From positions 1-64,000 of the forward strand of contig MHLM01000001.1 of the NCBI GenBank assembly GCA_001821395.1: 64,000 nt of DNA, given 5' to 3'. The notes under the pieces are model-generated. The model was not told the origin of the DNA. It saw only the letters and a list, made by a program, of their open reading frames with translations, and ran no database searches. Below are positions 851 through 30,562 of the stretch, piece by piece (positions within the stretch are counted from its first letter, which is position 1; each line of letters begins with the position of its first letter). The stretch comes from Candidatus Lloydbacteria bacterium RIFCSPHIGHO2_02_FULL_50_18 (GTDB taxonomy: Bacteria > Patescibacteriota > Minisyncoccia > Phycocordibacterales > UBA6899). A program made the translations under genes and the position numbers.

Positions 851-884
851 ATCTTTTGCGACTAATGCAGGTTTTGTATTTGCA

Positions 885-915
885 TAAAAAAGCACACCAG
901 TGATAGTGTGCTTTT
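885..915. terminator. Rho-independent terminator, bidirectional, between convergent genes
   Basis: GCACAC-N8-GTGTGC stem (892-911) flanked by an A-run upstream and TTTT downstream. Confidence 0.5.
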
Positions 916-1009
916 GATATATCGGACTAACGCGAAGTCCCTGCTTTGCGGTGACAGTCTTTGTGGTTGAAAGAGCGCAGAGTAGGAATTATATGCATAC
1001 GAGGAGTGC

Positions 1010-1675: not shown

Positions 1676-1831
1676 TCTCCGACTCCTTTGGGTTGGGGTT
1701 GATCTTTCCTCACTTGTTTTAAAGAACAAGGGGTTACGATACTCTATCTCAAAATGGTTGTCAATAGGTCGCTGCACGGTGTCGTTGTCAACATTGGATT
1801 TTTGTTATGGATATGCTACGGTGTAGCAATT

Positions 1832-2575: not shown

Positions 2576-2616
2576 GGCATGCAATATTATCAGTTATTAT
2601 TTTAATTTATCATCAT

Positions 2617-2844
2617 ATGGAACTCGAATCAGCAAAGTTGTTCGCAATGGCATTCGCAGCAGCAATAGGAGTCATCGGTCCCGGGATCGGACTCGGTATT
2701 CTCGTCGGTAAGAGCGTCGAGGCGATCGGACGTAATCCCGATGCATACGGCAAGATCTTCTCAACGATGATCGTTGGCGCGGCGCTTACCGAAGCACTCG
2801 GTATCATTGCGCTTGTTGCGGCCTTTCTTATCAGATTCCTTTAA
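2617..2844 (+). CDS. atpE: ATP synthase Fo subunit c
   Basis: 75-aa hairpin proteolipid with glycine-rich helix 1 (GVIGPGIGLGILVG) and the conserved carboxylate (TEALGI) in helix 2. Confidence 0.95.
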   Translation: MELESAKLFAMAFAAAIGVIGPGIGLGILVGKSVEAIGRNPDAYGKIFSTMIVGAALTEALGIIALVAAFLIRFL

Positions 2845-2862
2845 TCAGCCAGAGAGCGCGCT

Positions 2863-3315
2863 ATGGAAATCTTTCACGCATTCGGCATCGAGTGGAAACT
2901 ACTCGTTATTCAGATGATCAATTTCGGGATCGCGTTCTTTGTCTTGCGACAGTTCGCCTATAAACCGATCATCGCGATCCTCGCAAAACGAGAAAAAGAG
3001 ATCGCTCTTGGAGTTGCCGCAGCCGATAGCGCAAAGAAAGAGAAGGAGGCTATTCTTGAAGAAAAGGATGGCATCTTGCGAGCGGCTCGTGAAGAGGGGG
3101 GCAAGATCGTCGAAGGGTTGCGCAAAGAAGGTTCGCTTCAGGAGCGGGCGATGGTACGCGAAGCAGGAGAGCAGAGTGCTGCAATACTCGCTGATGCAAA
3201 AGCAAAAGCGGAGGAAGAGCGGGCCTACATCCTGCGCGAAAGCGAGAAAGACGTTGCAAAGGCGGCAATCCTCGCTGCGGAAAAGATATTACGAACAAGC
3301 GTTCACACCGCTTAA
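2863..3315 (+). CDS. atpF: ATP synthase Fo subunit b
   Basis: N-terminal TM helix followed by a long charged Ala/Glu/Lys-rich helix. Position lies between atpE and atpH. Confidence 0.85.
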   Translation: MEIFHAFGIEWKLLVIQMINFGIAFFVLRQFAYKPIIAILAKREKEIALGVAAADSAKKEKEAILEEKDGILRAAREEGGKIVEGLRKEGSLQERAMVREAGEQSAAILADAKAKAEEERAYILRESEKDVAKAAILAAEKILRTSVHTA

Positions 3316-3318
3316 TAT

Positions 3319-3717
3319 ATGCGCGCTTCCTATTATGCACGCGCCCTGCATTCCGCGCTCAAAGAACATCCGGAGATGGAAGAAAAGCTGCTCAAGCAGT
3401 TTGCGGAAACAGTAAAGGCTAACGGTCATACCTACCTGCTTCCCAAGATCGTTCGTTCTTTTGGGAAGCTGAGAGAAAAAGAAGAAAAGGGAAACACCAT
3501 TCAGGTCACCAGCGCAGTTTCACTGTCCGAACAGCAAACCCAGGAATTGCTCAAGAAGGAACCGTTCAAGCATGCGCTGTCGACGTCCCACAAGAAGGTC
3601 ATCCGCACGGTAGACAGCTCATTAGTAGGAGGAGTCATCGTAAAGACCGGCAACGAGAGGATCGATGCAAGTTATAAACGAGCACTTCTTGATCTTTATC
3701 AACACATCACCGAATAA
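3319..3717 (+). CDS. atpH: ATP synthase F1 subunit delta (short, 132 aa)
   Basis: C-terminal LVGGVIVKTGNERIDASYKRAL is typical of delta/OSCP. Position lies between atpF and atpA. It is about 45 aa shorter than canonical delta. Confidence 0.8.
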   Translation: MRASYYARALHSALKEHPEMEEKLLKQFAETVKANGHTYLLPKIVRSFGKLREKEEKGNTIQVTSAVSLSEQQTQELLKKEPFKHALSTSHKKVIRTVDSSLVGGVIVKTGNERIDASYKRALLDLYQHITE

Positions 3718-3738
3718 TTATTCAACTCATCACACACC

Positions 3739-5304
3739 ATGGAACATATCGTAGAAAAACTGAAAAAGCAGATCGTGGATTTCACCCCCAAAGCGCGCTC
3801 CGAGAAGATCGGGGTCGTGGTCACTGCGGCTGACGGTATTGCCGAAGTTGACGGTCTCGACGGCGTGATGATGGGTGAAATGGTGATGTTCGATACCGGT
3901 GAGGGAGAGTCTCTTGAGGAGAACCTGAGCGGTGAGAACGCACTCCTCGGCATGGCGCTCAATCTTGAAGAGGACACGGTGAAGGTAGTTGTCCTCGGTG
4001 ATGCCGTGAAGGTCAAGGAAGGAATGACGGTGAAGGCTATGGGGAGTATTCTCTCTATCCCCGTAGGACCTGAGCTTGTCGGACGAGTGGTGAATTCACT
4101 TGGTGAAGTGCTTGATGGCGGAATCCCGCTCAACACGAAGCAGCGCAATCCTATCGAACGGAAGGCGTACGGCGTCATTGAGCGCAAGTCGGTTTCAACG
4201 CCTCTCCATACCGGCATCAAGGCGATCGACGGCATGGTGCCTATCGGTCGCGGTCAACGTGAGCTTATCATCGGTGACCGTCAGACTGGGAAGACCGTTG
4301 TCGCCATCGACACGATCATCAATCAATTGAACGAACCCGTTAAGGATCGCCCTATCTGCATCTATGTAGCGATTGGACAGAAGGAGTCCAAGGTCGCACG
4401 TATCGTACAGCAGCTTCGGGATCGCGGTGCAATGGATTACACCATTATCGTGTCTGCCTCTTCTTCGTCGTCCGCGGCACTCCAATTTTTAGCACCGTTT
4501 GCCGGGGCGGCCATAGGAGAATATTTTATGGACGCCGGTAAGGATGCCCTTGTTGTTTATGACGACCTGTCAAAGCACGCCATTGCCTATCGCCAAATGT
4601 CACTCCTGCTTCGCCGTCCGCCCGGACGCGAAGCATATCCCGGAGATATTTTTTATCTTCACTCACGTCTGCTTGAACGCGCGGCACGTCTCTCCGACAA
4701 GATGGGGGGAGGATCACTCACGGCACTTCCTATCATCGAAACACAAGAGAACGACGTCTCTGCGTATATTCCGACTAATGTCATCTCAATTACTGACGGA
4801 CAGATCTATCTTGAGACCGACCTCTTCAACAAGGGCATCCGCCCTGCCATCAATGTCGGCGTGTCAGTCTCGCGTGTCGGTTCATCTGCGCAGACAAAGG
4901 CAATGAAGAAAGTTGCAGGCAAACTTCGCCTTGAGCTCGCCCAGTTCCGCGAGCTTGAAGCATTCGTGCAATTCTCTTCAGACCTTGACGAAGATACAAA
5001 GCGCCGCATCGAGAAGGGCAAGCTCATGGTGGAGATTCTCAAGCAGGACAAAAATGTTCCGTTGTCTTTTGAAAAGGAGGTGGCCATCATTTTCATTGCT
5101 GGCTCTGGCCTGTTCGACAATGCAGACAAATCAAAAGTTGCAGAAATTGAAAAAGGATTTTTTGCACTCTGTGAATCTCAGTACGCAGAAGTACTCCGTA
5201 CGATTGCTGAATCAAAAGATCTTTCGGAGGATTCACAGAAGATATTAAAAGAAGCTGCAGCAGCATTTAAGGCAGCTTCAAAAGAATTGTTTGTCACTGC
5301 ATAA
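3739..5304 (+). CDS. atpA: ATP synthase F1 subunit alpha
   Basis: Walker A GDRQTGKT and full-length similarity to F1 alpha. Confidence 0.97.
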
Positions 5305-5306
5305 CC

Positions 5307-6242
5307 ATGTCACTCAAGGCTGTTAAAAACAAAATAAAAAGTATCGACAAGACCCGCCAAGTTACGAAGGCGATGGAGGCGGTTTCTGCCGTGAAGATGC
5401 GTAAAAGTCAGGCGAGCGCGATCAGCGTCCGCCCCTACGCACTTTCCGCGCTCAAAATACTCCGTAGCATCTCGGGATCGATCGAAGTGACCAATCATCC
5501 GCTGACCGTTGTGCGACCGATCGCGCGCACTTGCCTCATCATCATTTCGGGTGATAAGGGACTGGCAGGGAGCTATGGTTCATCGCTGTTGAAGCAGGTC
5601 TATAAATTCATGGTCGAAAAAGATCTTACGAGTACTAACACAAGTCTTATTTGTGTCGGAAAGAAAGCATATGAGCATTTCAATAAGCGCGGCTTCGAGA
5701 TCATCGCACATTACGAAAAATGGAGCGATACGATCAATTTTGGTAATGTTGAACCGCTCGCACGGAAAGCGAAGGACCAGTTTGAAAGTGGTCGCGTCGA
5801 CCAGGTATTCATCGTCTACACGAATTTTGTTTCCACATTGAATCAGCTTGTCTACGCGCGACAGTTGCTTCCCGTGACATGGAAAGGTGTTGAAGAAGTG
5901 GTGCGCGGGATAACGCCGACAAAGGGAAAGTTTTCCGAGATCGGACGTGATATTGATAAAAAAGATCCGGTACGAGAATACTCCTTTGAACCGAACGCAG
6001 AATCTGTGCTCACGGGCTTGATTCCTACGCTATTTAATGTACAAATATATCACTCCGTACTTGAGGCAAATGCATCCGAACATTCCGCCCGCATGATCGC
6101 CATGAAGAATGCTTCGGATAATGCAAAGGAGATATCGCGAAGTCTAAAATTACATTTCAATAAAGTCCGCCAAGCTGCGATCACGAGAGAGGTCTCTGAG
6201 ATCGTTGGAGGCATGGAATCAATGAAAGTCGTTGACGCATAA
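5307..6242 (+). CDS. atpG: ATP synthase F1 subunit gamma
   Basis: N-terminal MSLKAVKNKIKSI..TKAMEAVSAVKMRK and the C-terminal helix are typical of gamma. Confidence 0.95.
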   Translation: MSLKAVKNKIKSIDKTRQVTKAMEAVSAVKMRKSQASAISVRPYALSALKILRSISGSIEVTNHPLTVVRPIARTCLIIISGDKGLAGSYGSSLLKQVYKFMVEKDLTSTNTSLICVGKKAYEHFNKRGFEIIAHYEKWSDTINFGNVEPLARKAKDQFESGRVDQVFIVYTNFVSTLNQLVYARQLLPVTWKGVEEVVRGITPTKGKFSEIGRDIDKKDPVREYSFEPNAESVLTGLIPTLFNVQIYHSVLEANASEHSARMIAMKNASDNAKEISRSLKLHFNKVRQAAITREVSEIVGGMESMKVVDA

Positions 6243-6267
6243 ATTAATTAATCATCAATATTTACGT

Positions 6268-8069
<1,802 letters not shown>

Positions 8070-10477: not shown

Positions 10478-10602
10478 AGTGCTTTTATCGAGAGTGTGGA
10501 GTAGGGAATTGGCCCGATGATACCACCAGCAACCACCTTTGGAGAGGACAGGTGCTAAATCCAAACCCCTATGGGGAAGATGAATGTGGTTGGAGGAATA
10601 AT
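10478..10602 (+). promoter_or_regulatory. SAM-I (S-box) riboswitch aptamer in the metK leader
   Basis: GCTTTTATCGAGAGTGTGGAGTAGGGAATTGGCCCGATGATACCACCAGCAACC...AGGTGCTAAATCC...GGGGAAGATGAATG matches the SAM-I consensus (UUAUCaAGAGnGGnGGAGGGAnuGGCCCgAUGA..CC.GCAACC...GGUGCuAAnUCC...AGAUGA). It lies directly upstream of metK. Confidence 0.7.
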
Positions 10603-10781: not shown

Positions 10782-11834
10782 ATGTCGAATCTTCAGAATA
10801 TTTATACCGTCGAAAGCGTCACGGAGGGACATCCCGACAAAATGTGCGATCAGATATCCGATGCGATACTCGATGCCTGTCTGGCACAGGACCCCAAGAG
10901 TCGTGTTGCGATCGAAAGTTTCGGCGCACACGGACTGCTCGTAATCGGCGGTGAGCTTACGACGGACGCGTCGATCGATGCCAAAGCGATTGCAGAAGAA
11001 GTATATCGCGATATCGGCTACACCGATGAATTAGAAATTATCACGCGCATTGTGCAGCAGTCTCCCGATATTGCGATGGGAGTCGATCAGGATGGTGCGG
11101 GTGATCAGGGGATCATGTATGGTTATGCGACGAATGAGACCGAGGAATATCTACCGAGCGGCATCACGCTGGTGCACAAGCTGACAAGCGGGTTAAGCGC
11201 ACTCCGAAAGAGCGGCGAACTTGAGTGGCTCCGACCCGACGGAAAAGCACAGGTGACCATTGAGAACGGTAGAGTGCGCACGGTTCTCGTTTCCACACAG
11301 CATGCCGATACACTCACGCAGCAAGAGATCAGGGCGTCGATCATCGACCGTTTGATCCGACCGCTCGTCGGCGATGTTGGGCATATCGAAATATTGGTCA
11401 ATCCGACAGGACGGTTCGTGCAGGGCGGTTTTGAGGCGGATACCGGTCTTACCGGCAGGAAGCTCATGGTTGATACGTATGGGGGCCTTGTGGCGCACGG
11501 AGGGGGTGCATTTTCCGGAAAGGACGCTACCAAGGTTGATCGTTCTGCCGCTTATATGGCACGATACGTCGCAAAAAATCTTGTTGCCAATAAGTTCGCA
11601 AATGAGGCAACAGTGTCGGTGGCCTATGCGATCGGACACCCGGAACCGCTTATGGTCTCGGCGCGTAATGAGCGCGGTGAAGATTTGAGCGATGCGGTCA
11701 AAAAACGATTTGATTTTCGTCCGAAAGCGATTATTCAACAATTGAACTTGCGACGTCCGATCTATCGGCAAACTGCATCATACGGGCACTTCGGAAAGGC
11801 TGGGCTCCCGTGGGAAGACGTCATCGTAATGTAA
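10782..11834 (+). CDS. metK: S-adenosylmethionine synthetase (compact, 350 aa)
   Basis: GHPDKMCDQISDA, GAGDQG and GGGAFSGKDATKVDRS motifs. Confidence 0.95.
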   Translation: MSNLQNIYTVESVTEGHPDKMCDQISDAILDACLAQDPKSRVAIESFGAHGLLVIGGELTTDASIDAKAIAEEVYRDIGYTDELEIITRIVQQSPDIAMGVDQDGAGDQGIMYGYATNETEEYLPSGITLVHKLTSGLSALRKSGELEWLRPDGKAQVTIENGRVRTVLVSTQHADTLTQQEIRASIIDRLIRPLVGDVGHIEILVNPTGRFVQGGFEADTGLTGRKLMVDTYGGLVAHGGGAFSGKDATKVDRSAAYMARYVAKNLVANKFANEATVSVAYAIGHPEPLMVSARNERGEDLSDAVKKRFDFRPKAIIQQLNLRRPIYRQTASYGHFGKAGLPWEDVIVM

Positions 11835-14115: not shown

Positions 14116-14231
14116 TTTGACTCCTCGATTGGTTGATGAAACGTACTTCCTCACTCAAACTACAACGATTTCATATTTACGCAAGCCCCATCTATGCTAC
14201 AATAGACGGGAAGTAGCATACTGCACTAATA

Positions 14232-16049
14232 ATGGAGCAAGAACCACTACAATCAGGGAAAAGCTTTCTTAAGGAGACAGGTCAGCCGCATGGTGGAACT
14301 GTTTTTCTGATCTTGACCCCGCTCATTCTTTGCGTCGGGGCGATCGGTACGGGTTGGCTTGTCTATTGGCTTCCGAAAACCGCTTATGCGGGTTCATCTT
14401 GGCAGATCATTAGCGCGGTCGTGGCAGTCCAAGCATTTCTTCTTACTTTCCTGCTTTTTTTGGTATTCCCCAAATATCGTGAATTTTCCGATCAGGCAAG
14501 CACCATTATAGAAGCGACCGCAGTCAAAGGGGAACGCTATGTGCGCGCACTCAGCGGATCGGGTCTTGGATATTGGGATCTCGATATTGAAACCGGTGAG
14601 GTGTTTATGTCCGCAAGTATGATGAGCATGCTCGGTTATTCCGACCGTGATCGACTGGATAATTTTCAGTTCTGGTTGAATAGCGTTCATCCTGATGACG
14701 CCGAAGGTCTTAAGCGTACGATGGAATATCATATCGACAAACGTACTCCCGACTATTCCATTGAGTACCGCATAAAAAGAGCGAACGGGGAATATGTTTG
14801 GGTCGCCGATAAGGGGAGGGCGATAACCGATGTTACGACCGGAAAGACGATCAAGCTTGCAGGTGTCACTCAAGATGTTTCTAATGTGAAACGCGTCCAG
14901 GAGGTGCTTGAAAGCCGAACACTCGAACTCGAAGAAGCGCAGAACAAGATCGAGCAGGAGATGCAAAATGTACGAAAGTTTCAGAAGGCCGTTGACTCAT
15001 CGACGGAGGCGGTATCGATCACCACACCGGACGGAGCGATCGTTTATGTTAATCCTGCTTGGTCGGCATTGAACGGGTTCACTGAAGCTGAAGCGTTAGG
15101 AAGAAATCCGCGGTTGCTGAAAAGCGAAGATACCAAAACGGACATTTTTGTCGCCATGTGGGAGAAGATTGCTGCGGGTGTTCCATTTCATACCGAAGAT
15201 GTCATGAATCGTCGGAAGGATGGATCGGTCTATCAGGCAGAATTGTCTATTTTTCCGATCCGTGAGGGAGCACAGACGTTGTTTTATGTCGCGCTTACTC
15301 AGGACATCACCTTACGCAAAGACGTCGATCGCGCGAAGACTGAATTCGTATCGCTTGCTTCGCATCAGTTGCGCACGCCGCTTTCCGCCATTCGTTGGTA
15401 TTCGGAAATGTTGCTGTCCAAATATGTTGGAGAGCTGAACGAAAAACAGCGTCAGTATGTGAAGGAGATCTACTCGGGGAACCTGCGAATGGTTGAGCTC
15501 GTCAATGCGTTGCTCAACGTATCACGCATCGACCTCGGTACGTTTGCCGTTGAGCCTGAGCCGGTCAATCTCGTGGAGATCTGCGACAGCGTCATCATGG
15601 AACTTACCCCCGGGATCAATGAACGTAAGCAGACCATCGAGCGGATCTATGCGAGCGCCCCCGGAACATATATTGCTGATCCGAAGCTGATCCGTATTGT
15701 ATTTCAAAATTTCCTTTCCAATGCGGTCAAGTATACGCAGCCGGAAGGTCACGTTGCAGTGGAGATCGCGACAAAGGAAAATAACCTCTACATCCGCGTA
15801 ACCGACAACGGATACGGTATTCCTAAGGCGCAACACTCAAAAATCTTTGAAAAACTCTTCCGGGCTGACAATGTTCGGCAAAAGGATACGGAAGGGACAG
15901 GACTCGGAATGTATATCGTGAAAGCAATCGTCGAATCGTCGGGAGGTAAGATATGGTTCGATTCGGAGGAAAATCAGGGTACGACATTCCATGTTTTGTT
16001 GCCGATGAGCGGTATGACCAAAAAGTCAGGAATGAAGGGACTTTCGTAG
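14232..16049 (+). CDS. Membrane-anchored PAS-domain sensor histidine kinase (two PAS, HisKA, HATPase_c)
   Basis: Two N-terminal TM helices, PAS-like repeats, H-box ASHQLRTPLSAIRWYSEML, N-box NAVKYT and G-boxes DNGYGIP / GTGLGMYIV. Confidence 0.9.
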   Translation: MEQEPLQSGKSFLKETGQPHGGTVFLILTPLILCVGAIGTGWLVYWLPKTAYAGSSWQIISAVVAVQAFLLTFLLFLVFPKYREFSDQASTIIEATAVKGERYVRALSGSGLGYWDLDIETGEVFMSASMMSMLGYSDRDRLDNFQFWLNSVHPDDAEGLKRTMEYHIDKRTPDYSIEYRIKRANGEYVWVADKGRAITDVTTGKTIKLAGVTQDVSNVKRVQEVLESRTLELEEAQNKIEQEMQNVRKFQKAVDSSTEAVSITTPDGAIVYVNPAWSALNGFTEAEALGRNPRLLKSEDTKTDIFVAMWEKIAAGVPFHTEDVMNRRKDGSVYQAELSIFPIREGAQTLFYVALTQDITLRKDVDRAKTEFVSLASHQLRTPLSAIRWYSEMLLSKYVGELNEKQRQYVKEIYSGNLRMVELVNALLNVSRIDLGTFAVEPEPVNLVEICDSVIMELTPGINERKQTIERIYASAPGTYIADPKLIRIVFQNFLSNAVKYTQPEGHVAVEIATKENNLYIRVTDNGYGIPKAQHSKIFEKLFRADNVRQKDTEGTGLGMYIVKAIVESSGGKIWFDSEENQGTTFHVLLPMSGMTKKSGMKGLS

Positions 16050-16117
16050 CGCGGATACGCACTGTTCGCATAAAAAGGAACATGGTAGGATAAGTATGTA
16101 TGGAAGAAGAAAAAAAA

Positions 16118-16507
16118 ATGAGAATATTGATACTTGAGGATGAACGCCAGCTTGCGAAAGCGGTGCGTGACGCTTTCACCGATCGTGGATTTGAAGCGAT
16201 CGTCGTTGCAACGGTGGGTGACGGTATCAAGCAACTGGAAAATCTTAAAATGGTCGACATTATTTGGCTGGATCACTACCTTCTCGGTGCGGAGAATGGC
16301 CTCGATTTTGTCGTACAACTCAAAAACCATTCGTCCTGGAAGAATATCCCGATCTTTGTTGTATCGAATAATGCAACAACGACCAATATCCGTTCCTATA
16401 TTCAGCTCGGTGTCACAAACTATTATACGAAAGCAGACTATGACATCAGTCAGATCATCAATGATATCAAGTATGCCCTTGCTCAAAAGGCATCGGCGCA
16501 GGCATAA
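16118..16507 (+). CDS. Single-domain response regulator (CheY-like receiver), copy 1
   Basis: ILILEDE acidic pocket, phospho-acceptor Asp in IIWLDHY, VVSNN and YYTKAD (conserved Ser/Lys). No output domain. ORF could start at 16100. Confidence 0.85.
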   Translation: MRILILEDERQLAKAVRDAFTDRGFEAIVVATVGDGIKQLENLKMVDIIWLDHYLLGAENGLDFVVQLKNHSSWKNIPIFVVSNNATTTNIRSYIQLGVTNYYTKADYDISQIINDIKYALAQKASAQA

Positions 16508-16516
16508 CATTACACC

Positions 16517-16915
16517 ATGAGTGAACTACTTAATAAAAAAATACTGATCGTTGAAGATGAAGCGCCGCTCCGCAACGCGGTTACCGATATCCTCACGTTT
16601 GAGGGGTTTACAGTCTTTCAAGGAAAAAACGGGCAAGAGGGTCTCGACATCGCGCTCCGTGAACATCCCGACCTGATCCTTCTTGATCTCATGATGCCTG
16701 TCATGGACGGCCTCACGATGCTTGAGAAATTACGGCTCGATCCCGACTACGGAAAATCCGCAGCGGTTATCCTGCTCACCAATATCAACGATCCTGAAAA
16801 GGTCGCTCAGGCGACAGAAGCCGGTTCGTATGATTTTTTGGTGAAGTCTGACTGGAATATTGAAGATGTGGTGAAAAAAATAAAAGGCAGACTGAGCATT
16901 GGTATTGCCGAGTGA
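16517..16915 (+). CDS. Single-domain response regulator (CheY-like receiver), copy 2
   Basis: ILIVEDE, LILLDLMMPVMDG, LLTN and LVKSD receiver motifs. Confidence 0.9.
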   Translation: MSELLNKKILIVEDEAPLRNAVTDILTFEGFTVFQGKNGQEGLDIALREHPDLILLDLMMPVMDGLTMLEKLRLDPDYGKSAAVILLTNINDPEKVAQATEAGSYDFLVKSDWNIEDVVKKIKGRLSIGIAE

Positions 16916-16961
16916 TCACCGTCGATCACTTACTTTTTTTCTCATCAAGAGAACGAATGAT

Positions 16962-17339
16962 ATGAGTAAAAAACACATTCTAATTGTTGACGATGAAGCG
17001 GCGCTCCGGCAGGTGCTTGAGGACAGGCTTCTCGATGAGGGTTTTATTGTCACAAAGGCCGTCAACGGGAAGGAGGGATTAAGTCTCGCGCTCGAAAAAC
17101 GTCCCGATCTTATCTTGCTTGATATCATGATGCCGATCATGGATGGATTGACCATGCTTGAAGACCTGAGGAGGGATAATGAATACGGAAACTCTGTACC
17201 CGTTATACTGCTCACGAACATCAACGATCATGATAAAGTTGAACGGGCTAGAGCGGCGGGCTCACACGACTGCCTGATGAAATCCGATTGGGACCTGTCG
17301 GACGTGTTAAAGAAGATCAGAGCGATTCTCACCGTGTAG
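16962..17339 (+). CDS. Single-domain response regulator (CheY-like receiver), copy 3 (paralog of copy 2)
   Basis: ILIVDDE, LILLDIMMPIMDG, LLTN and LMKSD. About 60% identical to copy 2. Confidence 0.9.
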   Translation: MSKKHILIVDDEAALRQVLEDRLLDEGFIVTKAVNGKEGLSLALEKRPDLILLDIMMPIMDGLTMLEDLRRDNEYGNSVPVILLTNINDHDKVERARAAGSHDCLMKSDWDLSDVLKKIRAILTV

Positions 17340-17380
17340 TTTTTACCAATAGAAAATTAACAGATTATATCCACCCTACT

Positions 17381-17614
17381 ATGTTCAAAGAATTCTTGAT
17401 GAAAAAGCTCATCGCATCGAAGCTCGGAAATATGCCGAAGGAGCAGCAAGAAAAGATCATTGGTCTTGTCACAAAGAATCCGAAACTGTTCGAGGAGATC
17501 GCACTCAAGATCAAAAAGAAGACCGATGCCGGTGCGAACCAGATGATGGCAACCACAACGGTCATGAAAGAATACGCTCCGCAGATCCAGAAGCTGATGG
17601 CAGGATCGGATTAG
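17381..17614 (+). CDS. Small lysine-rich helical hypothetical protein (no His, so not an Hpt)
   Basis: ORF 17288..17614 trimmed to the ATG at 17381 after the upstream receiver gene. No SD and no family recognised. Confidence 0.4.
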   Translation: MFKEFLMKKLIASKLGNMPKEQQEKIIGLVTKNPKLFEEIALKIKKKTDAGANQMMATTTVMKEYAPQIQKLMAGSD

Positions 17615-17646: not shown

Positions 17647-17675
17647 AAAACCCCTCATAGAGGGGTTTTGTTTTG
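17647..17675. terminator. Bidirectional rho-independent terminator between convergent genes
   Basis: AAAAACCCCTC-ATA-GAGGGGTTTTGTTTT. Confidence 0.7.
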
Positions 17676-17684: not shown

Positions 17685-18515
17685 TTATGAAGCGAAAAAA
17701 TATACGCACGCATAAATTATTGTCGAAATGACACCTGAGATTAATATATCAACCGGTGTTATTGGGTACATATATTCATGACGATACGAAGGAGATTTGC
17801 ACATGCGACCCTCAAAAAGGTTCGCCTGTGACACTATTGCACACATCCATTGCTCTGTGCGTCGTTCTTCAAAAAACATTTTTTCCTCTTCGTACTGTGT
17901 CAATTCCTTTTCGCATTCAGTTTTAAAACGCTCGACACTCAAGCCTTTAGATATCCACATTTCACGCTGCTTATGTGCATACCGATCACCTGCCCGTTTA
18001 ATTTTCTGATCAGCGAAAAGCTTTTCACGATCTCCACGTTGGCGAAGCACGGGTACAAGAAGAAGTGCGACAAGCATTGGAGACAATACGAGTAGCATAA
18101 AGACAAACCCAAGTATTGTTAGCATGAACATGATAAGCTCAACGTCGACCCCCGAATTCACCCCAGTGCCTTCATCATTGTCACTCCTTGATGATTTGTA
18201 GCTACTTGCACTGCCCCCACTACTACTTGAGGTGGTGCTGCTTTCCGAATTTTTTGGAGAAGGGGAATTCCATCCACTATTGAAACCCGACTTATATTGC
18301 TCACTTCCGAGTAGGTCTCCAAAAAATTGATGATCTGCCCCGTCCTTCTGACCTCGCGCATTGTCATATCCATTGTTATAGGTTTCGACTCTGGATTTCC
18401 ATTCCTGGGTTGATTCTCCCGGAATCGGCCACGGCTCATGTCGATCGGAACCACTTGCGCCGTCCTTCTCGCCGTTGTTGTGACTCGTCTGTTTCGGATT
18501 GTCAAAGAATCCCAT
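17685..18515 (-). CDS. Hypothetical membrane protein with a Gly/Ser/Asn-rich low-complexity N-terminal region
   Basis: AGGAGG lies 7 nt upstream of the ATG on the minus strand. About 120 aa of G/S/N-rich sequence are followed by a TM helix (LIMFMLTILGFVFMLLVLSPMLVALLLV), a charged domain and a C-terminal hydrophobic helix. Confidence 0.65.
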   Translation of the reverse strand: MGFFDNPKQTSHNNGEKDGASGSDRHEPWPIPGESTQEWKSRVETYNNGYDNARGQKDGADHQFFGDLLGSEQYKSGFNSGWNSPSPKNSESSTTSSSSGGSASSYKSSRSDNDEGTGVNSGVDVELIMFMLTILGFVFMLLVLSPMLVALLLVPVLRQRGDREKLFADQKIKRAGDRYAHKQREMWISKGLSVERFKTECEKELTQYEEEKMFFEERRTEQWMCAIVSQANLFEGRMCKSPSYRHEYMYPITPVDILISGVISTIIYACVYFFAS

Positions 18516-18585
18516 GGCACACCTCCTTTAAAAAATTACGTCTAAATTCATAATAACACGCATGTGGTAATCACGCAAGGGTTCA

Positions 18586-18618
18586 ATAAAAAGACCCGAA
18601 CTATAATGGCTCGGGTCT
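18586..18618 (-). terminator. Rho-independent terminator after the Pat-like gene
   Basis: AGACCCGA-N11-TCGGGTCT with AAAAA on the plus side, i.e. a T-run on the minus strand. Confidence 0.55.
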
Positions 18619-18625
18619 ATAACTG

Positions 18626-21349
18626 CTATTTACAAGACAAGTCCTTTTCAAACAGCACCATGGAATGATCTTCCGGATCAGGAGATTCACTGAATCCTGC
18701 TCCCTTAAACACTTTACGCATTTGCGCATTTGCTCGTTCCGTAATGCCGGTCAATTTCACAATCTGATTCTTCATAGCCCAATCGACGCTCGCTTCCATA
18801 AGGTAGCTCGCGAGATGCTGCCCTTTGTGGTCAGTACGTGTAAAGAACGCAATTTCAAATTCGCCTGCATCGTTTGCACGAACAATGCGCGTCACGCTGA
18901 CTATTTCTCCCTTCTCGTTTTCAGCAACAAATGCCATATGATTGCGATAGTCGATATTGCAGCGCGGCGCGAGACGTTTATGGCTCTTGCGTGTTTCTAA
19001 AGATATCGCCGTATAGTAACGGTGATAGACATCCTCCTTGCTTACCTGTTCGTGAAAGAACGACATCTTACCTTCATCAGATGCATCTATCGGTCGAATG
19101 GTAATTGCGTCGCCATTTGCAAGATGCACGATATGCACAAATGCACCGGGGTAGGGGCGTATTGCAGGATTTCTCCCGACTTCATCAGGAGCAAATAACT
19201 CAATGCGCGCATCGATCGCACATACATCCTCTGGGCTTGCGAGTAATGGATTCATTTCGATTGACCGAACGAGCCCCGAAAGACTTGTCGCAACCTCAGA
19301 GAGTCGTACCCCTGCTTCTACAATGGCATCAATATTTGCTGCTTTAGCACCGCGTACACCTTTAAGAATTTTGAATATTCTTGTCTGCTCCATCAATTGA
19401 AGCATTTGCGCACTTGAGTGTTGATTGATACCCATTGCGGTGTCACCAAAATACTCAACGTGCGTGCCGCCCCGACCGAAGATCATAATCGGTCCAAAGT
19501 CCGGATCATTGGTAGTTCCAAGAAATATTTCATGAGCATCTTTGGTTTTCACCATCGATTGGATCGTTACACCACAGAATGAGTGTGCGCCGAGTTTGTC
19601 AGTGACCGACTTTTTGATCTCATGAAACGCTTTTCCAACGTCGAATGGATTGCGAAGATTTAGGTGTACACCAAATTCACTTTTGTGCGAAAGGGCGGCG
19701 TTCACACCGGGATATATTTCCGCATGTGCTTTCACCACAACAGGGTAACCGATATGACGCGAAGCTTCCATTGCTACTGCTTCAGAACGCGCAACACGAA
19801 TAACGTTTGTGGGTATCTGCGCCATACGCAGTATCTCTTTTGCCTCGTCCTCTGCGAGCAGCGTGCGACCTCCGTCACGAATTTCAAGGAGGAGTCGTCG
19901 CATTTCTTTGAGTGTTGCATCGCTAATGCGAGGGATAGCACGAGGAGTTTGATAGAGCACTTCATGTCTACGACGATACTCAGCAAGATGCCCGAGAATA
20001 CGTGCAGCAGTGTCTGGGTTTTGAAGCACAGGGATACTGGCTTCTTGAAGTAGTTTTTCTCCACCGCCGATAGACCATCCACCTGTCCAGACGACAAAGA
20101 CCGGTTTGCGAAATCCAACCGCACGTTGTTCGCTTACTGCCTGAATAATTCCTTTCGCAACTTCTTCAGGAGGTGACATGGCGGTAGGAACATACATGAT
20201 GATCACGGACTCAACGTTTTTGTCTGCGAGTACTGTCCGTACTGATTGGTAATACCGTTCACGCCCCGCATCACCAATGATGTCTACGGGATTCCCGTGT
20301 GACCAATTTGACGGCAAAAAAGCATCAAGTGCGGTCAGTGTTTCTGTGGTGAGTGCTACGGGTAAGAGTCCCGAAAGTGCAGCACGATCAGCTGCGATCA
20401 CCCCTGGTCCACCACCATTCGTGATGAAGGTATAACGATCAGATCTGGGGAGTTCCTGGTTAGCAACGATAGCAGTAGAAAACATTTCATCAAGCGAATC
20501 GACTCTGATCGCTTGTGTTCTGCGCAACGCCGCATCAAAGACTTTGTCGTTACCCGCAAGTGAGCCCGTATGTGTTGCCGCTGCTTTTGCAGCAGCCTCA
20601 CTTCGGCCCGGCTTGAAGACGACAACGAGCTTGTGTTCCGATACTTCGCGGAGTGCAGAAAGAAAACCTTCCGCATCAGCTCCAATACCTTCAACATACA
20701 AAAGAATCGCGTGGGTCTTGGGGTCAGACCCGAGATAGGAAAGATATTCTTTCCACGACAGATCAAAGGCATTGCCCATCGTGATCACTTTGTTGAGACC
20801 AACGCCAAGTCCACGTGCACGATCGACGAGCGCGACGGCTACGCCACCGCTCTGCGAAATGATTGAAACATGTCCAGGCGACGATATGCCCGTCAGTCCG
20901 AATGTAAGGTCAAGACCATTTTCCATGTTCATGAGCCCAAAGCAGTTCGGTCCAACAATGCGCGTATTACTCCCTGCGACCGCATCTTCAAGTTCTTTTT
21001 GAAGCTGATCGCCTTCTTTCGTGTGCACTTCACCAAAACCGGCGCTGATGATGAGCAAATATTTCACTCCACGCGTTGCGCATGATCGTGCAATATTTGG
21101 TACATATTGTGCCGCCGTCGTGATGACGACGAGCTCTGGAACATCGTCAAGTTCTTCTATCGAATGAACCGTACGCAATCCCACAATCGGCTGTGTTGCA
21201 TTGGGGTTGATCGCAATAATGCGATTGATAGGAAATCCTCCACGTGCCGCTCGTTGTGCAAGAACATTACCGAGTTTTCCGGGAGTGTCACTTGCGCCGA
21301 TAATGGCGACCGAGGATGGGTGAAATAACCCATACAATTTTGATCTCAT
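18626..21349 (-). CDS. Pat/YfiQ-type protein acetyltransferase: NDP-forming acyl-CoA synthetase (CoA-binding, ligase-CoA and ATP-grasp domains) fused to a C-terminal GNAT
   Basis: N-terminal CoA-binding Rossmann domain (VAIIGASDTPGKLGNV...ISAGFGE), central succinyl-CoA-synthetase-like and ATP-grasp regions, and a C-terminal ~130-aa GNAT-like domain. Start at MRSKLYG has AAGGAG 7 nt upstream. Confidence 0.85.
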   Translation of the reverse strand: MRSKLYGLFHPSSVAIIGASDTPGKLGNVLAQRAARGGFPINRIIAINPNATQPIVGLRTVHSIEELDDVPELVVITTAAQYVPNIARSCATRGVKYLLIISAGFGEVHTKEGDQLQKELEDAVAGSNTRIVGPNCFGLMNMENGLDLTFGLTGISSPGHVSIISQSGGVAVALVDRARGLGVGLNKVITMGNAFDLSWKEYLSYLGSDPKTHAILLYVEGIGADAEGFLSALREVSEHKLVVVFKPGRSEAAAKAAATHTGSLAGNDKVFDAALRRTQAIRVDSLDEMFSTAIVANQELPRSDRYTFITNGGGPGVIAADRAALSGLLPVALTTETLTALDAFLPSNWSHGNPVDIIGDAGRERYYQSVRTVLADKNVESVIIMYVPTAMSPPEEVAKGIIQAVSEQRAVGFRKPVFVVWTGGWSIGGGEKLLQEASIPVLQNPDTAARILGHLAEYRRRHEVLYQTPRAIPRISDATLKEMRRLLLEIRDGGRTLLAEDEAKEILRMAQIPTNVIRVARSEAVAMEASRHIGYPVVVKAHAEIYPGVNAALSHKSEFGVHLNLRNPFDVGKAFHEIKKSVTDKLGAHSFCGVTIQSMVKTKDAHEIFLGTTNDPDFGPIMIFGRGGTHVEYFGDTAMGINQHSSAQMLQLMEQTRIFKILKGVRGAKAANIDAIVEAGVRLSEVATSLSGLVRSIEMNPLLASPEDVCAIDARIELFAPDEVGRNPAIRPYPGAFVHIVHLANGDAITIRPIDASDEGKMSFFHEQVSKEDVYHRYYTAISLETRKSHKRLAPRCNIDYRNHMAFVAENEKGEIVSVTRIVRANDAGEFEIAFFTRTDHKGQHLASYLMEASVDWAMKNQIVKLTGITERANAQMRKVFKGAGFSESPDPEDHSMVLFEKDLSCK

Positions 21350-21591
21350 ACTATTCTCCTTGTGGTGCCCCAAAGTACAAAAGGGCTAGTTACAAAGTAC
21401 TTCTTGCTTCGATTTACCATATTTTTTAAAAAAAGCAACTGGCTATTTTTTAGTATTTAATTTCCTCTCCGAATAGGAATGCTCGTCCTTTGGCCTTCAA
21501 AAAACCGTGCGACACGATCATTATGAGGTCCGTCGATTCAATGTGGTTGTCGCGTTGTTAATAAGACCCATGATTGTTATAGTTACATGAC

Positions 21592-24500
21592 ATGTTCAGA
21601 ACACGTAAAGGTCGCTCTTCGTCACGTGGGATCGAGAGTCTTGCAAAAGAGCTCACGTTGACCGCACAACTTTCTTTCGACGAACGTCGGGCTACGATCT
21701 TCGCCCAACGATCAAGAAAAACACTCATTCGTACTCGCGCTGCATATCGCGACCTGTTGCAGCATCTTAATGAACGAGTACAGGCAACTCAGGGTATCGA
21801 ACTGCTTCTGGATAATTTCTATATCATTGAGAGTGCGTTGACCGAGCTGCTCTCGAGCTGGAAGGAAAAGATGACACTTCGTGTCCCTCAATCGCAGGAC
21901 GTCGACGGGGAAAAACAGCCACGTGTATATACGATCGCGCGCGCATTAACAAAGGAGGTGGATGCAAGATTTGACCGTGAAACGATTATTGAATTTCTCA
22001 GATCCTATCAAAAGAATACTCCTCTTTCGTTGCGGGAACTTGATATTTTTCCGGATATGTTGCGATTCGTGCTCATTGAAGAGGTGCTTCGGATCATCGA
22101 TGCGAGTCTTGCGGTGCTAAAGGAAAAGGCTGATGCGAATCGTTGGTACGAGCGCATCGTTGATGCAAGTCGACACAAAAATACTTCGGCTCGCTTGAGA
22201 AAGCTTACGGGTCTTCTTGCTGCAGAATATACCATCATTCCACAAATATTCGGTTTGCATCTGCTCCACCGCTTAGATCAGGCGGGAAAGGAGGGCGATA
22301 TCCGTATGGTAAGCAAGTGGCTTAAACTTTCGCTTTCAAAACAAGGAGTAAGCTATGCTCAGCTTTCAACGCTGAAATCCCATACGGAAAAAGTGCAGGC
22401 AGCCACGATGAGAAATGCGGTGACGAGTCTTCGTTATCTGTCTCAAGTACGATGGGATAAGGTCTCTCTGGAATTGAATATGGTCGATGCTGTCCTCTCC
22501 AAAGATCCTGTTGGCGCATTCGCGATGCTCACTGATGACGCGCGCTCTTTGTATCGCAGGACCATTGCGCGTATTAGTGACGGGACGGGAACACACGACA
22601 TCGAGGTCGCACGTGAAGCAGTACGTCTTGCGCGACAAGCAGTCGAAGTGGGAAATGACAAGACCATGCGTTCGCATCATGTGGGATATTATCTGCTTGA
22701 TAAGGGCGTCTTGGAGCTTGAACAGATGCTTGGATACGTACCGACATTCATGGAGAGTGTGCGCATGATCGTCTTGAAGCACAATACGAATGCGTACCTC
22801 GGATTCATTTGTGTTGTCACGCTTCTCTCGACCGGTGTATTTCTTGCACAGAGTGGCGCGTTCGCGTTCTCCGCACTTCTTTTTTTTGCGATGTTCATGC
22901 TGGGACTACTGTTGATGTCAGAAGTGGCAACGGTATTCGCTCACTTTATGTTTACAAGGATACTTATTCCGAAACAATTGCCCGCACTCGATCTTGCGCT
23001 CGGTATTGGTGACGCTCGTCGAACGGTGGTTGTCGTGCCTTCGATGTTTCGGAGTGCCGCCTCTGCACAGAAGATACTTCGAAGAATGGAGACGAATTTT
23101 GTGGGGAATAGTGACACAAATATTTTTTATGCTTTTTTGATGGATTTCCGTGATGCGAAGTCTGAAGAAGTGCCGCAAGACAACAAGCGTGTCACCGAGA
23201 TGAGGGAGGGGATCATGCTGCTCAATGCAAAGTATCCGTCAGCCATACCTCGTTTTGCATTGTTCTATCGCAAACGAAAATGGAATACCGCCGAAGGTAC
23301 ATTTATGGGCTGGGAAAGGAAGCGTGGGAAACTCAAGGAATTCAATGATCTATTGCGTGGTAAGGAAACATCGTACATCGATGACGCACAAAAGTGTGCA
23401 GCAGCTTATGGAACCGTCCGTTACGTGATCACGCTCGACGAAGACACGGAGCTCGTAAGAGATTCAGCGCGATCGCTTATTGGAACGATCGACCATCCGC
23501 TCAATCGCCCCGTAGTAGATCCGGTCAAAATGGTCGTTACAGAGGGCTATGGAATTGTTCAACCGCGAAGCGCTTTAAGATTCGAGGAAGGAGGAGCATC
23601 ACTCTTTTCTCGATTATTTGGCAGTTACCCGGGTATTGAGTCCTACTCATCGTTTGTTTCTGACCTGCATCAGGACCTGTTCGGAGAGGGTATATTTCAC
23701 GGAAAAGGTATTTACGATATCGATGCGTTTAATACAACGATGTCGGAACGTATCCCGGAGAACACCGTGCTTTCGCATGACCTGCTCGAAGGCTTGTACG
23801 CTCGAGTCGGCATCGCAAGTAGTGCGCACATTTTTGAGGGTTTTCCGTCAAATTATCGGGAGTATATACAGCGGTCTCATCGCTGGATACGTGGAGACTG
23901 GCAGATTATTACATGGCTATTTGACCGTGGTGCGGTATTTTCACGGATCGGTCGATATCGTATCTTTGATAATCTTCGACGGAGTTTGATCCCCATAGCC
24001 GCAGTGCTTGCGGTGATCTTTTCTTTATTTTCTGCGGCGGAGCTATCATCGTGGAGCATTGTCGCACTGCTTGCGATCGGTTCGGGTCAATTGATATCCG
24101 CAGTATTGCGCATCACCGAACGAACTACGAATTGGAAACGGCCGGTAAGTATCGTCGCGAGATTCGAATCAATGATCACTAGCTCGGTTGTGGCGCTCGT
24201 TAAAACATTATTTCTTGGCGCATTCGCACTCCATAGCGCAATGATCACTATTGATGCGATCGTGAGAAGTATGTGGCGACTCTTTTTTTCAAAAAGGCAT
24301 CTTCTTGAGTGGCAGACCGCATATGAAGCAGCTCTTGAGCGGAAAGATTCGATCAAGGGCTTCATACGATTCATGTGGCGCAGTGTGTGCCTCTCTCTCG
24401 CGCTCGTTTATCTCTTGTTCCACGGTGGAGGCATACAGGACCCCGTCGTGGTCATGTGGGTTCTTGCATGGCTCTTTGCTCCGTATTGCGCGGCGAGGAT

Positions 24501-27500
24501 CAGTGCAGAGCTGAAGAACAGGTATGTGCTTTCGGATACCGAACGTTTATATCTGCGTAAGGTTGCAGCACGGACATACTGGTTCTTTATTGACCTTGCA
24601 ACAAAGGAAGATAGCTGGCTTGTGCCGGATCATCTTCAGGAAGAACCACCAAGTAAGCGCCATTCCCATGGGCTCGGTATCTCCCCGACAAATCTTGGTA
24701 TGTACCTTTTGTCACTTTCGGGAGGACGAGCATTGGGACTCTCGTCGCTTTCAGCATACACAGATCGGATAACGCGCGCCTTTGCAAGTATGGAACGCAT
24801 GGTGCGTTACAACGGGCATTTTTATAATTGGTATGAACTGAAGCAGCTCACACCGCTTGCTCCCCGCTACGTATCAAGTGTTGATAGTGCAAATCTTGCA
24901 TTGTCACTACTCGCAGTGAAGGGTGCCCTCATTGATGCCACCGATGCACCGATTATTAGCGATGCCATGTTTCAAGGGCTCGATGCGCAACTCCACGTAC
25001 TCCTCGAGTCATGCGAACAAGCGATCACAATCAAGACGTCCGAACGTCACGAACGAAAATTACTTGGGGAGATCAGGTCGGCTGCTACAGAATCGATCAT
25101 GCTGATCCAGAAAGTGGCGAACGAAGCATTGACGCCTCGAGGAAGTGATCTTGTTTGGACTGGGGTCATTCATCATGCGGTACGTACGAGGAATGCACTC
25201 GAGGAATTGCGTCTCGAGGGGAAAAGCGAGCGTTTTGAGGAAATATTCCTCGCTGCGAGACATATTGAATCTGTCGCTGATGCCTATCGGGATAATGTTG
25301 CGCGATATCTCGGACACGCGGTCATTTCTGCGGTTTCCGCTTTAGCTCATGACCCCAAGCTTCATGCGCTGTATCTCCAGCTTTCGTTACTGTTGCAGCG
25401 GATACCAAGTGTGAATGATCTTGCTGATGGAGTAGTTCGGCGGGAGATCGAATCAGTCGGAATTCTTGATGCGGTTCTGCTTTCTCAGCTTGAAACAGAA
25501 GAAAAAAAGCGAGTTCGTGCGTGGTACGCACAGATCTTAGAAAGACTTGCCGAATCTGAAAAAAGAGCATCCGAGGCGCAGTCTTCATTGATCGGGTCTG
25601 CAAAGAGCGCGGCTGCTTATGTAGAGGAAATGAATTTTGAATTTCTTTATAATAAAGAGCGCGGTCTATTCCATATCGGATATAATTGCTCTACCGAAAA
25701 ACTCGATGAAGCATTTTATGATCTGCTCGCTTCAGAAGCGAATTCGACAAGTATCATCGGAATTGCTAAGCGTGATGTCCCTCAGGCACATTGGGCATAT
25801 CTCGGCAGAAAGTTGATCCAGAGCGGGAACGGCGACGTACTCGTTGCTTCATGGGCGGGATCGTTATTTGAGTATTTGGGAACGCTATTGTATTTCAACG
25901 TCCCGAGGGAAAGTTTTTGGGGTGTCTCTGCTCAGCGGGCTATTGCGGCACATCAGGCTTTTGCGCAGAAATATCATATACCGTGGGGGATGGGTGAGTC
26001 TGCCTCTTCGCGGCAAGATGTTGCACGGAATTATCATTACCAAGCATTCGGAGAACCATCCCTTGGTTTTAAGCGTGATCTTTCCGAATCGATCGTTGTC
26101 GCTCCGTATACAAGTGCTCTCGCACTTTCGATGGCACCAAAAGAAGCACTCGCAAATTTTCAACAGCTTGAGCGCGCCGGGGCATTTGGTCGCTACGGTT
26201 TCTATGATGCGATTGATTTTACGAAGAAAAGGGCAAAAGAATACCGTGAATCTTCGGGGGTACCTGCACGAATATATTATGCGCATCATCAGGGATTCAT
26301 ACTTTCATCGATCATCAATGTGCTCAATGATGGTTGGGTTCGTACGATGGTTGCTAAGGATCCTCAAATGGAAGTGTCAACACAGTTGTTTGAGGAGAAG
26401 ATGCCGGAAGACGTTCGCGGTGAGAAGATCAGCCCTATCGTCCCCGAAATACCTGTTGCTCAAACAGTATCAACGTTTGCAGCATCTCCTCGTCGGTATC
26501 TTCCGTGGCGTACCAAAGAAGCAACCTCAATGTTTCTTTCAAATGAAGATTATTTTACCCGAATCACCGCGACGGGTGCCGGAGAGAGCTCCATCGGCGA
26601 TGTATTGATCACTCGAGCATCAAGCGATATGTTGCGCGAGTCTGTCGGCACCTTCTTCTATGTCTTTGATGCGGCACGAGACAAGATGTGGTCACCAACG
26701 TACATGCCGACGCGAGTCGCGGGTGATAAGCATACTGTTTCCTTCGGTGAACAGATCATTCAATTCAAGAAAACGCATGAGGAGATCGACTCATCGTTGA
26801 TCGTGACCCCCCTTATTCAAGATCATGGAGAGTTGCGCGAGCTTTCACTTACCAACACAAGAGAAAAAGAGACCGTGCTTACCTTCGGAGTATGCGCAGA
26901 ACTGTCACTTTCGCGAAGACAGGATGAATCATCACACCCGAACTATGAGCAGCTCTTCGTTTCTACTGAAACGCATTGGGGGGGGCGTGCCATCATTGCT
27001 TCGCGCCCCGACCCGCATGATCGTAATCACCATATTGTAGCCGGTTTTCTTCTCGTCGGAGACGGTATGCTTGATGACGTACATGCGATAAGAGAGAAAA
27101 GCCTTTTCTTGGGTTCCCCGGAGCAAAAAGATGATCCGCCAATATTGCGTGACCTCTCACGTGCGAACAAGGAGGGTCCTGCTCACACGCTCGACAGTGT
27201 CGCCGCATTCGTCGGTCGTGTTCGATTGCGGCCGAAAGCAACCACCCGTGTCACATTGGTGACAATCGTAGGGAAGTCAAAAGAAGAGGTATTTGCACGT
27301 CTAAAGATCTATCGCAATTACAAGTCTGTACTGGGTGTCATAGGTGGCGCCGACCGTGCAGGGGGGCAACTGCTGAGCGAGCTCAGCATCACGGCACTTC
27401 AGGCTGAAGCCTACGGTACCCTGGCTTCAATTGCTATCGCTCGTGAAGTAAAAAGCGGAAAGGAATCAAACTCCAATGCTCGTCCTTGGGTCTCAGCTCT

Positions 27501-30363: not shown

Positions 30364-30519
30364 CGGTCAGAAACGGTCCTTCTTGGTGTTTGAACCCTCC
30401 TACATAGCCATCATGGCCCTCCGAGTCTTTGTTGTTTTAAGAGAAACCTTACTAATATTTTTTGATCAAAAGTATTGTGAGACCTAATAAGTAGCGTAAA
30501 AAGGGATGTCGAATTTATT

Positions 30520-30552
30520 TTAAAAGAAGAGCCGCACCTTTTCTGGCGCGGC
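30520..30552 (-). terminator. Possible terminator after the secreted HExxH protein gene
   Basis: Minus-strand GCCGCGCC-AGAAAAG-GTGCGGC followed by a T-rich run. Imperfect. Confidence 0.35.
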
Positions 30553-30562
30553 GAGTATCTCA

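Follow-up and report, generated by a model that had tools for sequence, protein, structure and literature searches.

A membrane histidine kinase and three stand-alone receivers of a Lloydbacteria genome form part of a Patescibacteria-wide cassette that lies beside type IV pilus genes in many relatives

On what does a sensor kinase act when the receivers encoded behind it carry no output domain? This question is raised by a run of five co-directional genes on the plus strand at positions 14232-17614 of contig MHLM01000001.1 (assembly GCA_001821395.1) of Candidatus Lloydbacteria bacterium RIFCSPHIGHO2_02_FULL_50_18, within a stretch of 64,000 nucleotides (nt) that was analysed as a whole and is called the window here. 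The genes encode a histidine kinase, three receivers (RR1, RR2 and RR3) and a small helical protein (small77). The host is a tiny-genome groundwater bacterium, a Paceibacterota/Parcubacteria member of the Patescibacteria, or candidate phyla radiation (CPR), and an identical operon is also found on metagenome contigs from the Rifle aquifer. Patescibacteria have tiny genomes with few regulators and need pili for attachment to host cells, and little is known of regulation of any kind in the group. With somewhat less than even confidence, we propose that the operon encodes a branched phosphotransfer pathway that acts by protein contacts, most likely on pilus machinery, a target suggested by the relatives of the operon. 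The genes are as follows.

14232..16049, plus strand: sensor histidine kinase of 605 amino acids (aa), assigned by Pfam, hydropathy and motifs.
16100..16507, plus strand: RR1, stand-alone receiver of 135 aa, WLDHYLLG family, assigned by Pfam, orthologues and synteny.
16517..16915, plus strand: RR2, stand-alone receiver of 132 aa, of the D[LI]xMP ... TNIN ... KSD type, assigned by Pfam.
16962..17339, plus strand: RR3, receiver of 125 aa counted from the ATG, lineage-specific paralogue of RR2, assigned by Pfam and a tree.
17381..17614, plus strand: small77, four-helix protein of 77 aa, assigned by conservation and a predicted model.

Pfam matches place a PAS_3 domain at residues 124-212 of the kinase, a PAS/PAS_9 domain at 249-360, HisKA at 368-435 (7e-18) and HATPase_c at 483-592 (5.6e-31), and hydropathy marks hydrophobic segments at about 19-45 and about 56-82 with a loop of about 10 residues between them. 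These results bear out the architecture of two transmembrane (TM) helices, two PAS domains, HisKA and HATPase that had been read from the letters of the locus before any database search (hereafter the sequence-only reading). Because the two TM helices stand about 10 residues apart, the kinase has no extracellular sensor domain. It had also been called an orphan, a label that does not suit a gene directly followed by its likely partner receivers.

All three receivers score above the Pfam Response_reg cut-off of 30.2 bits (RR1 46.6, RR2 81.0 and RR3 87.3), and alignment to CheY shows that each keeps the acidic pair, the phospho-Asp, the Thr/Ser and the Lys, as the sequence-only reading had stated. 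The same catalytic residues are present in 73 RR1-type receivers and in most of the 84 other receivers of the related loci described below. Both receiver families share an Asn at T+1 and lack the Pro that usually follows the conserved Lys of receivers. The proteins are 125-135 aa long; Response_reg is the only Pfam domain on RR2 and RR3, and RR1 is matched only by models of the receiver clan, with cREC_REC above its cut-off and OKR_DC_1_N below, both overlapping Response_reg. We rejected cREC_REC (PF20274) as an identity for RR1, since the match is an overlap within the receiver clan in which Response_reg scores higher (46.6 versus 34.6 bits).

How, then, could the signal leave these proteins? 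As had been claimed, the locus holds neither a DNA-binding output domain nor a histidine phosphotransfer (Hpt) domain, judging from Pfam, from the gaps between the genes and from small77, which has no His. The three receiver genes each have a clean stop codon, and the intergenic gaps from the kinase to small77 measure 50, 9, 46 and 41 nt. With just 9, 46 and 41 nt after the receivers, no output domain can be recovered by frameshift correction, so a hidden output domain, a weak point that the sequence-only reading had named, is ruled out. Since the receivers have no output domain and there is no Hpt, output must take the form of protein-protein contact.

Is this arrangement peculiar to one organism? 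In a pattern scan of one genome per species, the kinase and RR1 (WLDHYLLG) were found in 170 species genomes across Patescibacteria, labelled as Lloyd-, Yonath-, Morani-, Falkow-, Buchanan-, Staskawicz-, Magasanik-, Doudna-, Berkel- and Peribacteria, and 80 loci were fetched for inspection of their neighbourhoods. In 67 of 74 loci, the gene immediately before RR1 encodes a homologous kinase. RR2 follows RR1 in most loci, and the number of RR2-like receivers after RR1 varies from 0 to 4; locus L050 has four tandem receivers and L052 has five. With 0-4 extra receivers per cassette, three receivers after one kinase fall within the normal range, and the earlier view that such a number is unusual for a small genome gives way to that of a recurrent cassette. 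The RR1 family, with the signatures ILEDERQLA, WLDHYLLG, IPIFVVSN and NYYTKADYDI, comprises at least 432 clusters at E <= 1e-5. The operon is the Lloydbacteria version of a Patescibacteria-wide kinase-receiver cassette. As a locus it is ordinary in kind; the family, its pilus linkage and an unusual H-box are what make it noteworthy. Our literature search found no described CPR cassette of a kinase with stand-alone receivers and no CPR pilus regulator of such a kind, and in the literature found the CheY-like genes of ultra-small bacteria are counted only, not analysed (PMC9938205).

Natural fusions offer a second view of the cassette. A profile search against 1.84 billion representative proteins returned 1277 matches at E <= 1e-10, many of which are proteins of 245-340 aa with two receiver domains. 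Proteins P0183 and P0188 are fusions of an RR1-like and an RR2-like receiver in gene order. P0195 has the same order, with an intact RR2-like half and an RR1-like half that is a pseudo-receiver, its phospho-Asp being replaced by His (VWLHHYLQ); P0252, a hybrid kinase, has four receivers. Among the fusions examined from this search, none joined an RR1-like domain to any other output domain. It can be argued from the natural RR1-RR2 fusions that RR1 and RR2 work together.

A few of the cassette records carry labels from outside the CPR, namely Nitrotoga (L023), Gammaproteobacteria (L046, L065, L073, L077, L082 and L087) and Bacteriovorax (L057). The RR2 of L023 is 86% identical to the Lloydbacteria RR2, and these names, which stand on contigs with CPR-like neighbours, are probably due to mis-binning or crude taxonomy labels. 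In other CPR lineages, genes for kinase-less sensors adjoin the cassette, namely in L036, L038, L040, L042, L046, L048, L049, L051, L053, L054, L058, L062, L065, L068 and L069 (for example L046:2289-3575 and L046:3634-4923). On the input side these sensors have several PAS domains, dCache with HAMP, or PAS with a PhnD-like binding domain, and most of them end in a helix motif that approximates EKhNxhMxGRELKMxELK, seen in 19 proteins and internal in L040.

The neighbours of the distant relatives suggest what the receivers could contact. Type IV pilus (T4P) genes (pilB, pilC and pilins) lie at most nine genes from the cassette in 29 of the 54 distant loci (L036-L089), mostly on the same strand, and the gaps between pilus genes and cassette are 49-79 nt in the three loci measured. 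The gene order is pilB-pilC-pilins-kinase-RR1 in L077, L073, L074 and L087, kinase-receiver-RR1-pilB-pilC-pilins in L039 and kinase-RR1-RR2-RR2-pilB-pilC in L060, and such embedding of the cassette in pilus operons recurs in many separate candidate phyla. The Pfam families T2SSE, T2SSF and N_methyl were confirmed on example genes; in the remaining loci T4P genes were scored from BLAST matches with two example PilB and PilC proteins and from a pilin N-terminal motif. A group-wide cassette that often lies within a pilus operon is a testable candidate switch for attachment.

In the pathway that we propose, the membrane-anchored kinase would read a cytoplasmic signal, probably redox, through a flavin-type PAS domain of the NifL/MmoS kind beside its dimerization and histidine phosphotransfer (DHp) domain, and would set the phosphorylation state of the stand-alone receivers. 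RR1 would be the constant partner of the kinase and likely the main output. RR2 and its old duplicate RR3 would be accessory, either competing for phosphoryl flux as a sink or tuner or carrying a second output. The likeliest target would be the T4P machinery, for example the PilB ATPase.

How old is the third receiver? RR2 and RR3 had been taken for recent paralogs. They share 61% protein identity and 65% DNA identity, with a synonymous divergence (dS) of 2.67, which is saturated. This third receiver is found only in the window and in L010, from a second Lloydbacteria species, and the third receivers of the two loci cluster in a neighbour-joining tree. Because the synonymous sites are saturated and RR3 has an orthologue in L010, the duplication is old and the description as recent must be dropped. 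Between the window and L010, whose synonymous sites are themselves saturated, the nonsynonymous divergence (dN) is 0.244 for RR3, 0.052 for RR1 and 0.070 for RR2. RR3 is an old, lineage-specific and fast-evolving duplicate of RR2 with intact catalytic residues. RR2 is the best-conserved protein of the operon, its 120 best homologue clusters being 83-91% identical, and both RR1 and RR2 show a dN/dS of about 0.03, indicating strong purifying selection, though dS is saturated.

The H-box bears on the direction in which phosphoryl groups flow. The DHp domain has the phospho-accepting His (H378) of the HisKA type, in the sequence S-H378-Q-L-R-T-P (residues 378-384; window 15363-15383), where Gln379 takes the place of an acidic Glu or Asp at H+1. 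The heptad SHQLRTP is shared by 67 of the 69 cassette kinases across Patescibacteria, whereas unrelated kinases of the same loci retain H-E. The acidic H+1 residue is needed for autokinase activity, and the phosphatase residue, Thr or Asn, stands at H+4 (PMC3510030). In CrdS, the E372Q exchange led to loss of autokinase activity in vitro with phosphatase activity kept (Willett and Kirby, PMC3510030), and NtrB E140Q has a matching kinase-negative phenotype, reported without in vitro data (PMC3510030). The cassette kinase has Thr382 at H+4.

These observations raise the possibility that the kinase is mainly a signal-regulated phosphatase and that the receivers are charged by acetyl phosphate or by another kinase. 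We consider this unlikely, as the ATP-binding boxes N (NAVKYT, 497), G1 (DNGYGI, 525), F (FEKLF, 539) and G2 (GTGLGM, 555) are intact and conserved, which would be unexpected if ATP were never used. A natural Gln may also be offset by neighbouring residues, and the window showed neither pta nor ackA. Gln at H+1 would best be read as a departure from the consensus and not as proof of kinase inactivity; the family could have either an alternative His-activating arrangement or a bias towards phosphatase activity. In every tested feature except the H+1 residue, the kinase is that of a classical HisKA two-component system. A family-wide Gln beside the phospho-accepting His provides a natural test of the rule that autokinase activity needs an acidic H+1 residue.

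Several points count against the pathway that we favour and against its pilus target in particular. T4P genes were detected in 0 of the 26 Lloydbacteria-clade loci by the same method as in the distant loci, and no pilus gene was found in the 64-kb window, where genes were Pfam-scanned to about 54 kb, or in the approximately 8 kb upstream of it. Since no pilus gene lies near any Lloydbacteria-clade cassette, the pilus link rests on relatives, and the RR1 of pilus-linked relatives is only 41-54% identical. The count of 0 in 26 also implies that the background rate of T4P detection is low, the enrichment being given without a formal genome-wide background. Within the clade RR2 is more conserved than RR1, a poor fit with a mere sink, and the effect of Gln at H+1 in CrdS and NtrB makes the direction of phosphoryl flow uncertain.

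Might the same branched pathway have another target, such as RNA polymerase or a sigma factor, cell division or metabolism? In such a case small77 could be an adaptor or target in Lloydbacteria, and the pilus adjacency seen elsewhere would reflect the history of genome organization or a lineage-specific use. The Lloydbacteria-clade cassette, never near pilus genes, sits in a fixed neighbourhood with a divergent PIN-PhoH2 gene upstream and small77, YchF and LeuRS downstream, and small77 comes directly after RR2 in approximately 27 loci of the Lloydbacteria-Yonathbacteria clade, with identity as low as 42%. However, in other Paceibacterota small77 follows dnaX, with no two-component genes in 7 kb on either side. 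YchF and LeuRS, which are housekeeping genes, share the small77 synteny, so adjacency in a single clade is weak evidence, and the embedding in pilus operons is recurrent in many candidate phyla. We regard a non-pilus target as possible but doubtful.

The small protein itself is the product of a real gene that is conserved (59 clusters, with identities of 55-88% among those aligned) and has 77 aa, one fewer than first given. Its predicted model has four helices (pLDDT, a model confidence score, 87) and no fold relative was found for it; a small77 profile gave only chance-level matches against PDB sequences, and no match was found in Pfam, NCBIfam or PHROGs. The sequence-only reading had listed it with the kinase and the receivers; its place after dnaX elsewhere does not sustain clear membership of the module. 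Within the Lloydbacteria clade it keeps synteny with the cassette and is at most a candidate signalling component. From its position after dnaX we considered an analogue of YbaB/EbfC and rejected this, as there is no YbaB_DNA_bd match in Pfam and the model is all-helical.

A multistep phosphorelay would pass phosphoryl groups from the kinase to a stand-alone receiver, on to a protein of the Hpt or Spo0B kind and finally to a DNA-binding regulator whose gene lies outside the locus. Stand-alone receivers of the Spo0F kind play such a role, and only 64 kb of the genome is visible. Neither an Hpt domain, in the operon or the scanned window genes, nor a regulator with an output domain that could form the terminal step, among those window genes, was found. 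There is also no further recurrent gene family, and hence no conserved Hpt candidate, among the neighbours of the cassette in the 80 loci, and the fusions seen are of receivers with receivers only. As an Hpt, small77 was rejected: no His occurs in its 35 aligned homologues, and it has no family match and no Hpt-like fold. We consider a phosphorelay highly unlikely. Of the functions first suggested for the module, a phosphorelay is set aside for want of an Hpt in the genes scanned, while the branched or phosphate-sink pathway and a chemotaxis-like output without che genes are retained, with the pilus link in relatives added to them.

Which signal would the proposed pathway sense? The second PAS domain (PAS2) adjoins the DHp domain on its N-terminal side, and its closest matches are the flavin adenine dinucleotide (FAD)-binding PAS domains of MmoS (3ewk, 9.5e-23) and NifL (2gj3, 1.2e-14), with a match to NifL PAS1 in NCBIfam (2e-33). 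PAS2 also matches light-oxygen-voltage (LOV) domains; the Cys of the LOV photoreceptor motif GxNCRFLQ is replaced by Pro (GRNPRLLKS), which places it outside the LOV photoreceptors. A flavin-based redox input through PAS2 is plausible, flavin binding being predicted from these similarities.

A phosphate signal would be expected if the kinase were a PhoR-like phosphate-starvation sensor whose PhoB partner had lost its DNA-binding domain. PhoR has a similar layout of two TM helices, minimal loop, PAS, HisKA and HATPase, the best NCBIfam matches of the kinase are PnpS, WalK and PhoR, and the divergent neighbour gene carries the name PhoH. We find this explanation hardly credible, since the scores are far below the NCBIfam equivalog cut-offs (PnpS 219.6 versus 400, PhoR 189 versus 334.2 and WalK 200.4 versus 725) and the partner receivers have no DNA-binding domain. 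Neither pst nor phoU was seen among the window genes, PhoH2, an RNA helicase with a PIN domain, has only a nominal link to phosphate here, and relatives of the cassette adjoin pilus genes.

A more far-reaching version of our proposal would have one ancient Patescibacteria cassette control the pili used for host attachment. The Gln-H+1 kinase would then be a redox-gated phosphatase or represent a new catalytic arrangement, acting on paired stand-alone receivers that bind directly to the pilus motor, and small77 and the GRELKMxELK sensors would be new accessory parts. We consider this combination unlikely.

The boundaries of the genes and the sites around them were also assessed. A start of RR1 at 16100 is backed by orthologues that begin with MEE..KK, and the mechanically called open reading frame (ORF) of RR3 has a TTG start at 16899 that overlaps the end of RR2. 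Three sites around the genes were noted.

14176..14203, plus strand: candidate promoter-like site, TTTACG, 16 nt, TG-TACAAT, from a consensus scan (9/12 positions).
16910..16931, plus strand: weak terminator-like hairpin and T-run at the RR2 stop codon, before RR3, with only 3 G-C pairs.
17647..17669, no strand assigned: two-way terminator between the operon and a convergent gene of 276 aa, a G+C-rich hairpin with a 10-bp stem and T-runs on both strands.

The candidate promoter lies in the 77 nt that separate the kinase gene from the divergent PIN-PhoH2 gene. Promoter and terminator scans of the region gave no more sites than expected from shuffled sequence, and the strong hairpin at 17647-17669 is the sole convincing element from these scans. 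The hairpin at 16910-16931 is possibly a relic of an operon end that predates the duplication. Rfam and tRNA scans gave no match in the operon.

Other parts of the window have features of their own. A block of approximately 13 kb (17685-31105) breaks the small77-YchF synteny of the relatives and holds an ORF of 2923 aa (21592-30363, plus strand) with GH94, glycoamylase and GH94 beta-sandwich domains; by its domains this is like a cyclic beta-1,2-glucan synthase or a cellobiose phosphorylase, and it is very large for a CPR genome. At 18626-21373 on the minus strand, a 915-aa ADP-forming acetyl-CoA synthetase (CoA_binding, Succ_CoA_lig and ATP-grasp_5) is fused to a C-terminal GNAT domain, which looks like the architecture of a Pat-type protein acetyltransferase. 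An unusual transcription factor may be encoded at 35450-36484 (plus strand), a 344-aa protein with an N-terminal Sigma70 region 4 and, at 224-282, a HARE-HTH domain; its synteny is conserved in the relatives L006 and L007, and in L046 and L059 it is found near the cassette. A 283-aa protein (42899-43750, plus strand) combines an ATP-cone with an Mrr_cat restriction-endonuclease domain. Upstream of the operon, an S-adenosylmethionine (SAM) riboswitch (10482-10586, plus strand; RF00162, 58.3 bits) precedes an S-adenosylmethionine synthetase gene (10782-11834). At the start of the window (38-8069) and in L090:388-9097, genes with Oxidored_q6, Complex1_30kDa/49kDa, NADHdh and three Proton_antipo_M domains are immediately followed by a complete F-type ATP synthase operon, and the approximately 8 kb upstream of the window hold only complex-I-like (NADH-dehydrogenase/antiporter-type) genes. 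This complex-I/Mrp-antiporter gene set may form a module like the membrane-bound hydrogenases, which would be notable for a Parcubacteria genome.

How does the cassette compare with systems that are already known? In PilG/PilH of the Pseudomonas aeruginosa Pil-Chp system and PixG/PixH of the Synechocystis Tax1 system, two stand-alone CheY-like receivers and one kinase act on T4P via contacts (PMC10519157; PMC11181946). The cassette similarly has two receiver families after one kinase and is located in pilus operons in many relatives. Those systems, however, have a CheA-type kinase, a methyl-accepting chemotaxis protein (MCP), CheW and methylation enzymes, whereas the kinase here is a membrane protein of the HisKA plus PAS type, outside the Che/Pil-Chp class, and Pfam scans of the window genes up to about 54 kb found no CheA, CheW or MCP family. 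The similarity of the cassette receivers to CheY-type receivers is generic only. FrzZ (Myxococcus) and DrdR (Xanthomonas) are output-less receiver-receiver proteins that tune pilus-dependent motility, and the RR1-RR2 fusions have the same build; DrdR is reported to control PilB/PilT activity (PMC13507683). The window receivers differ in being three separate genes, and the homology shown is confined to the generic receiver fold.

Like PilS-PilR, a two-component system that is encoded with the pilus genes it controls, the cassette occurs among pilus genes; PilR, however, is an NtrC-type DNA-binding activator, while the receivers here have no output domain. LovK-LovR of Caulobacter and EL368/EL346 with a LovR sink have photoactive HWE/HisKA_2 kinases and are connected with the control of adhesion and stress. 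The cassette shares with them a flavin-type PAS before the kinase core and a stand-alone receiver as partner or sink, and differs in its HisKA domain and in having Pro for the LOV Cys. Several stand-alone receivers serving one kinase also recall the CheY1/CheY2 sink of Sinorhizobium and Spo0F, which differ from the cassette in that neither CheA nor Hpt/Spo0B was found here; the variable copy number of the cassette, with 0-4 extra receivers, suits such a sink or tuning role.

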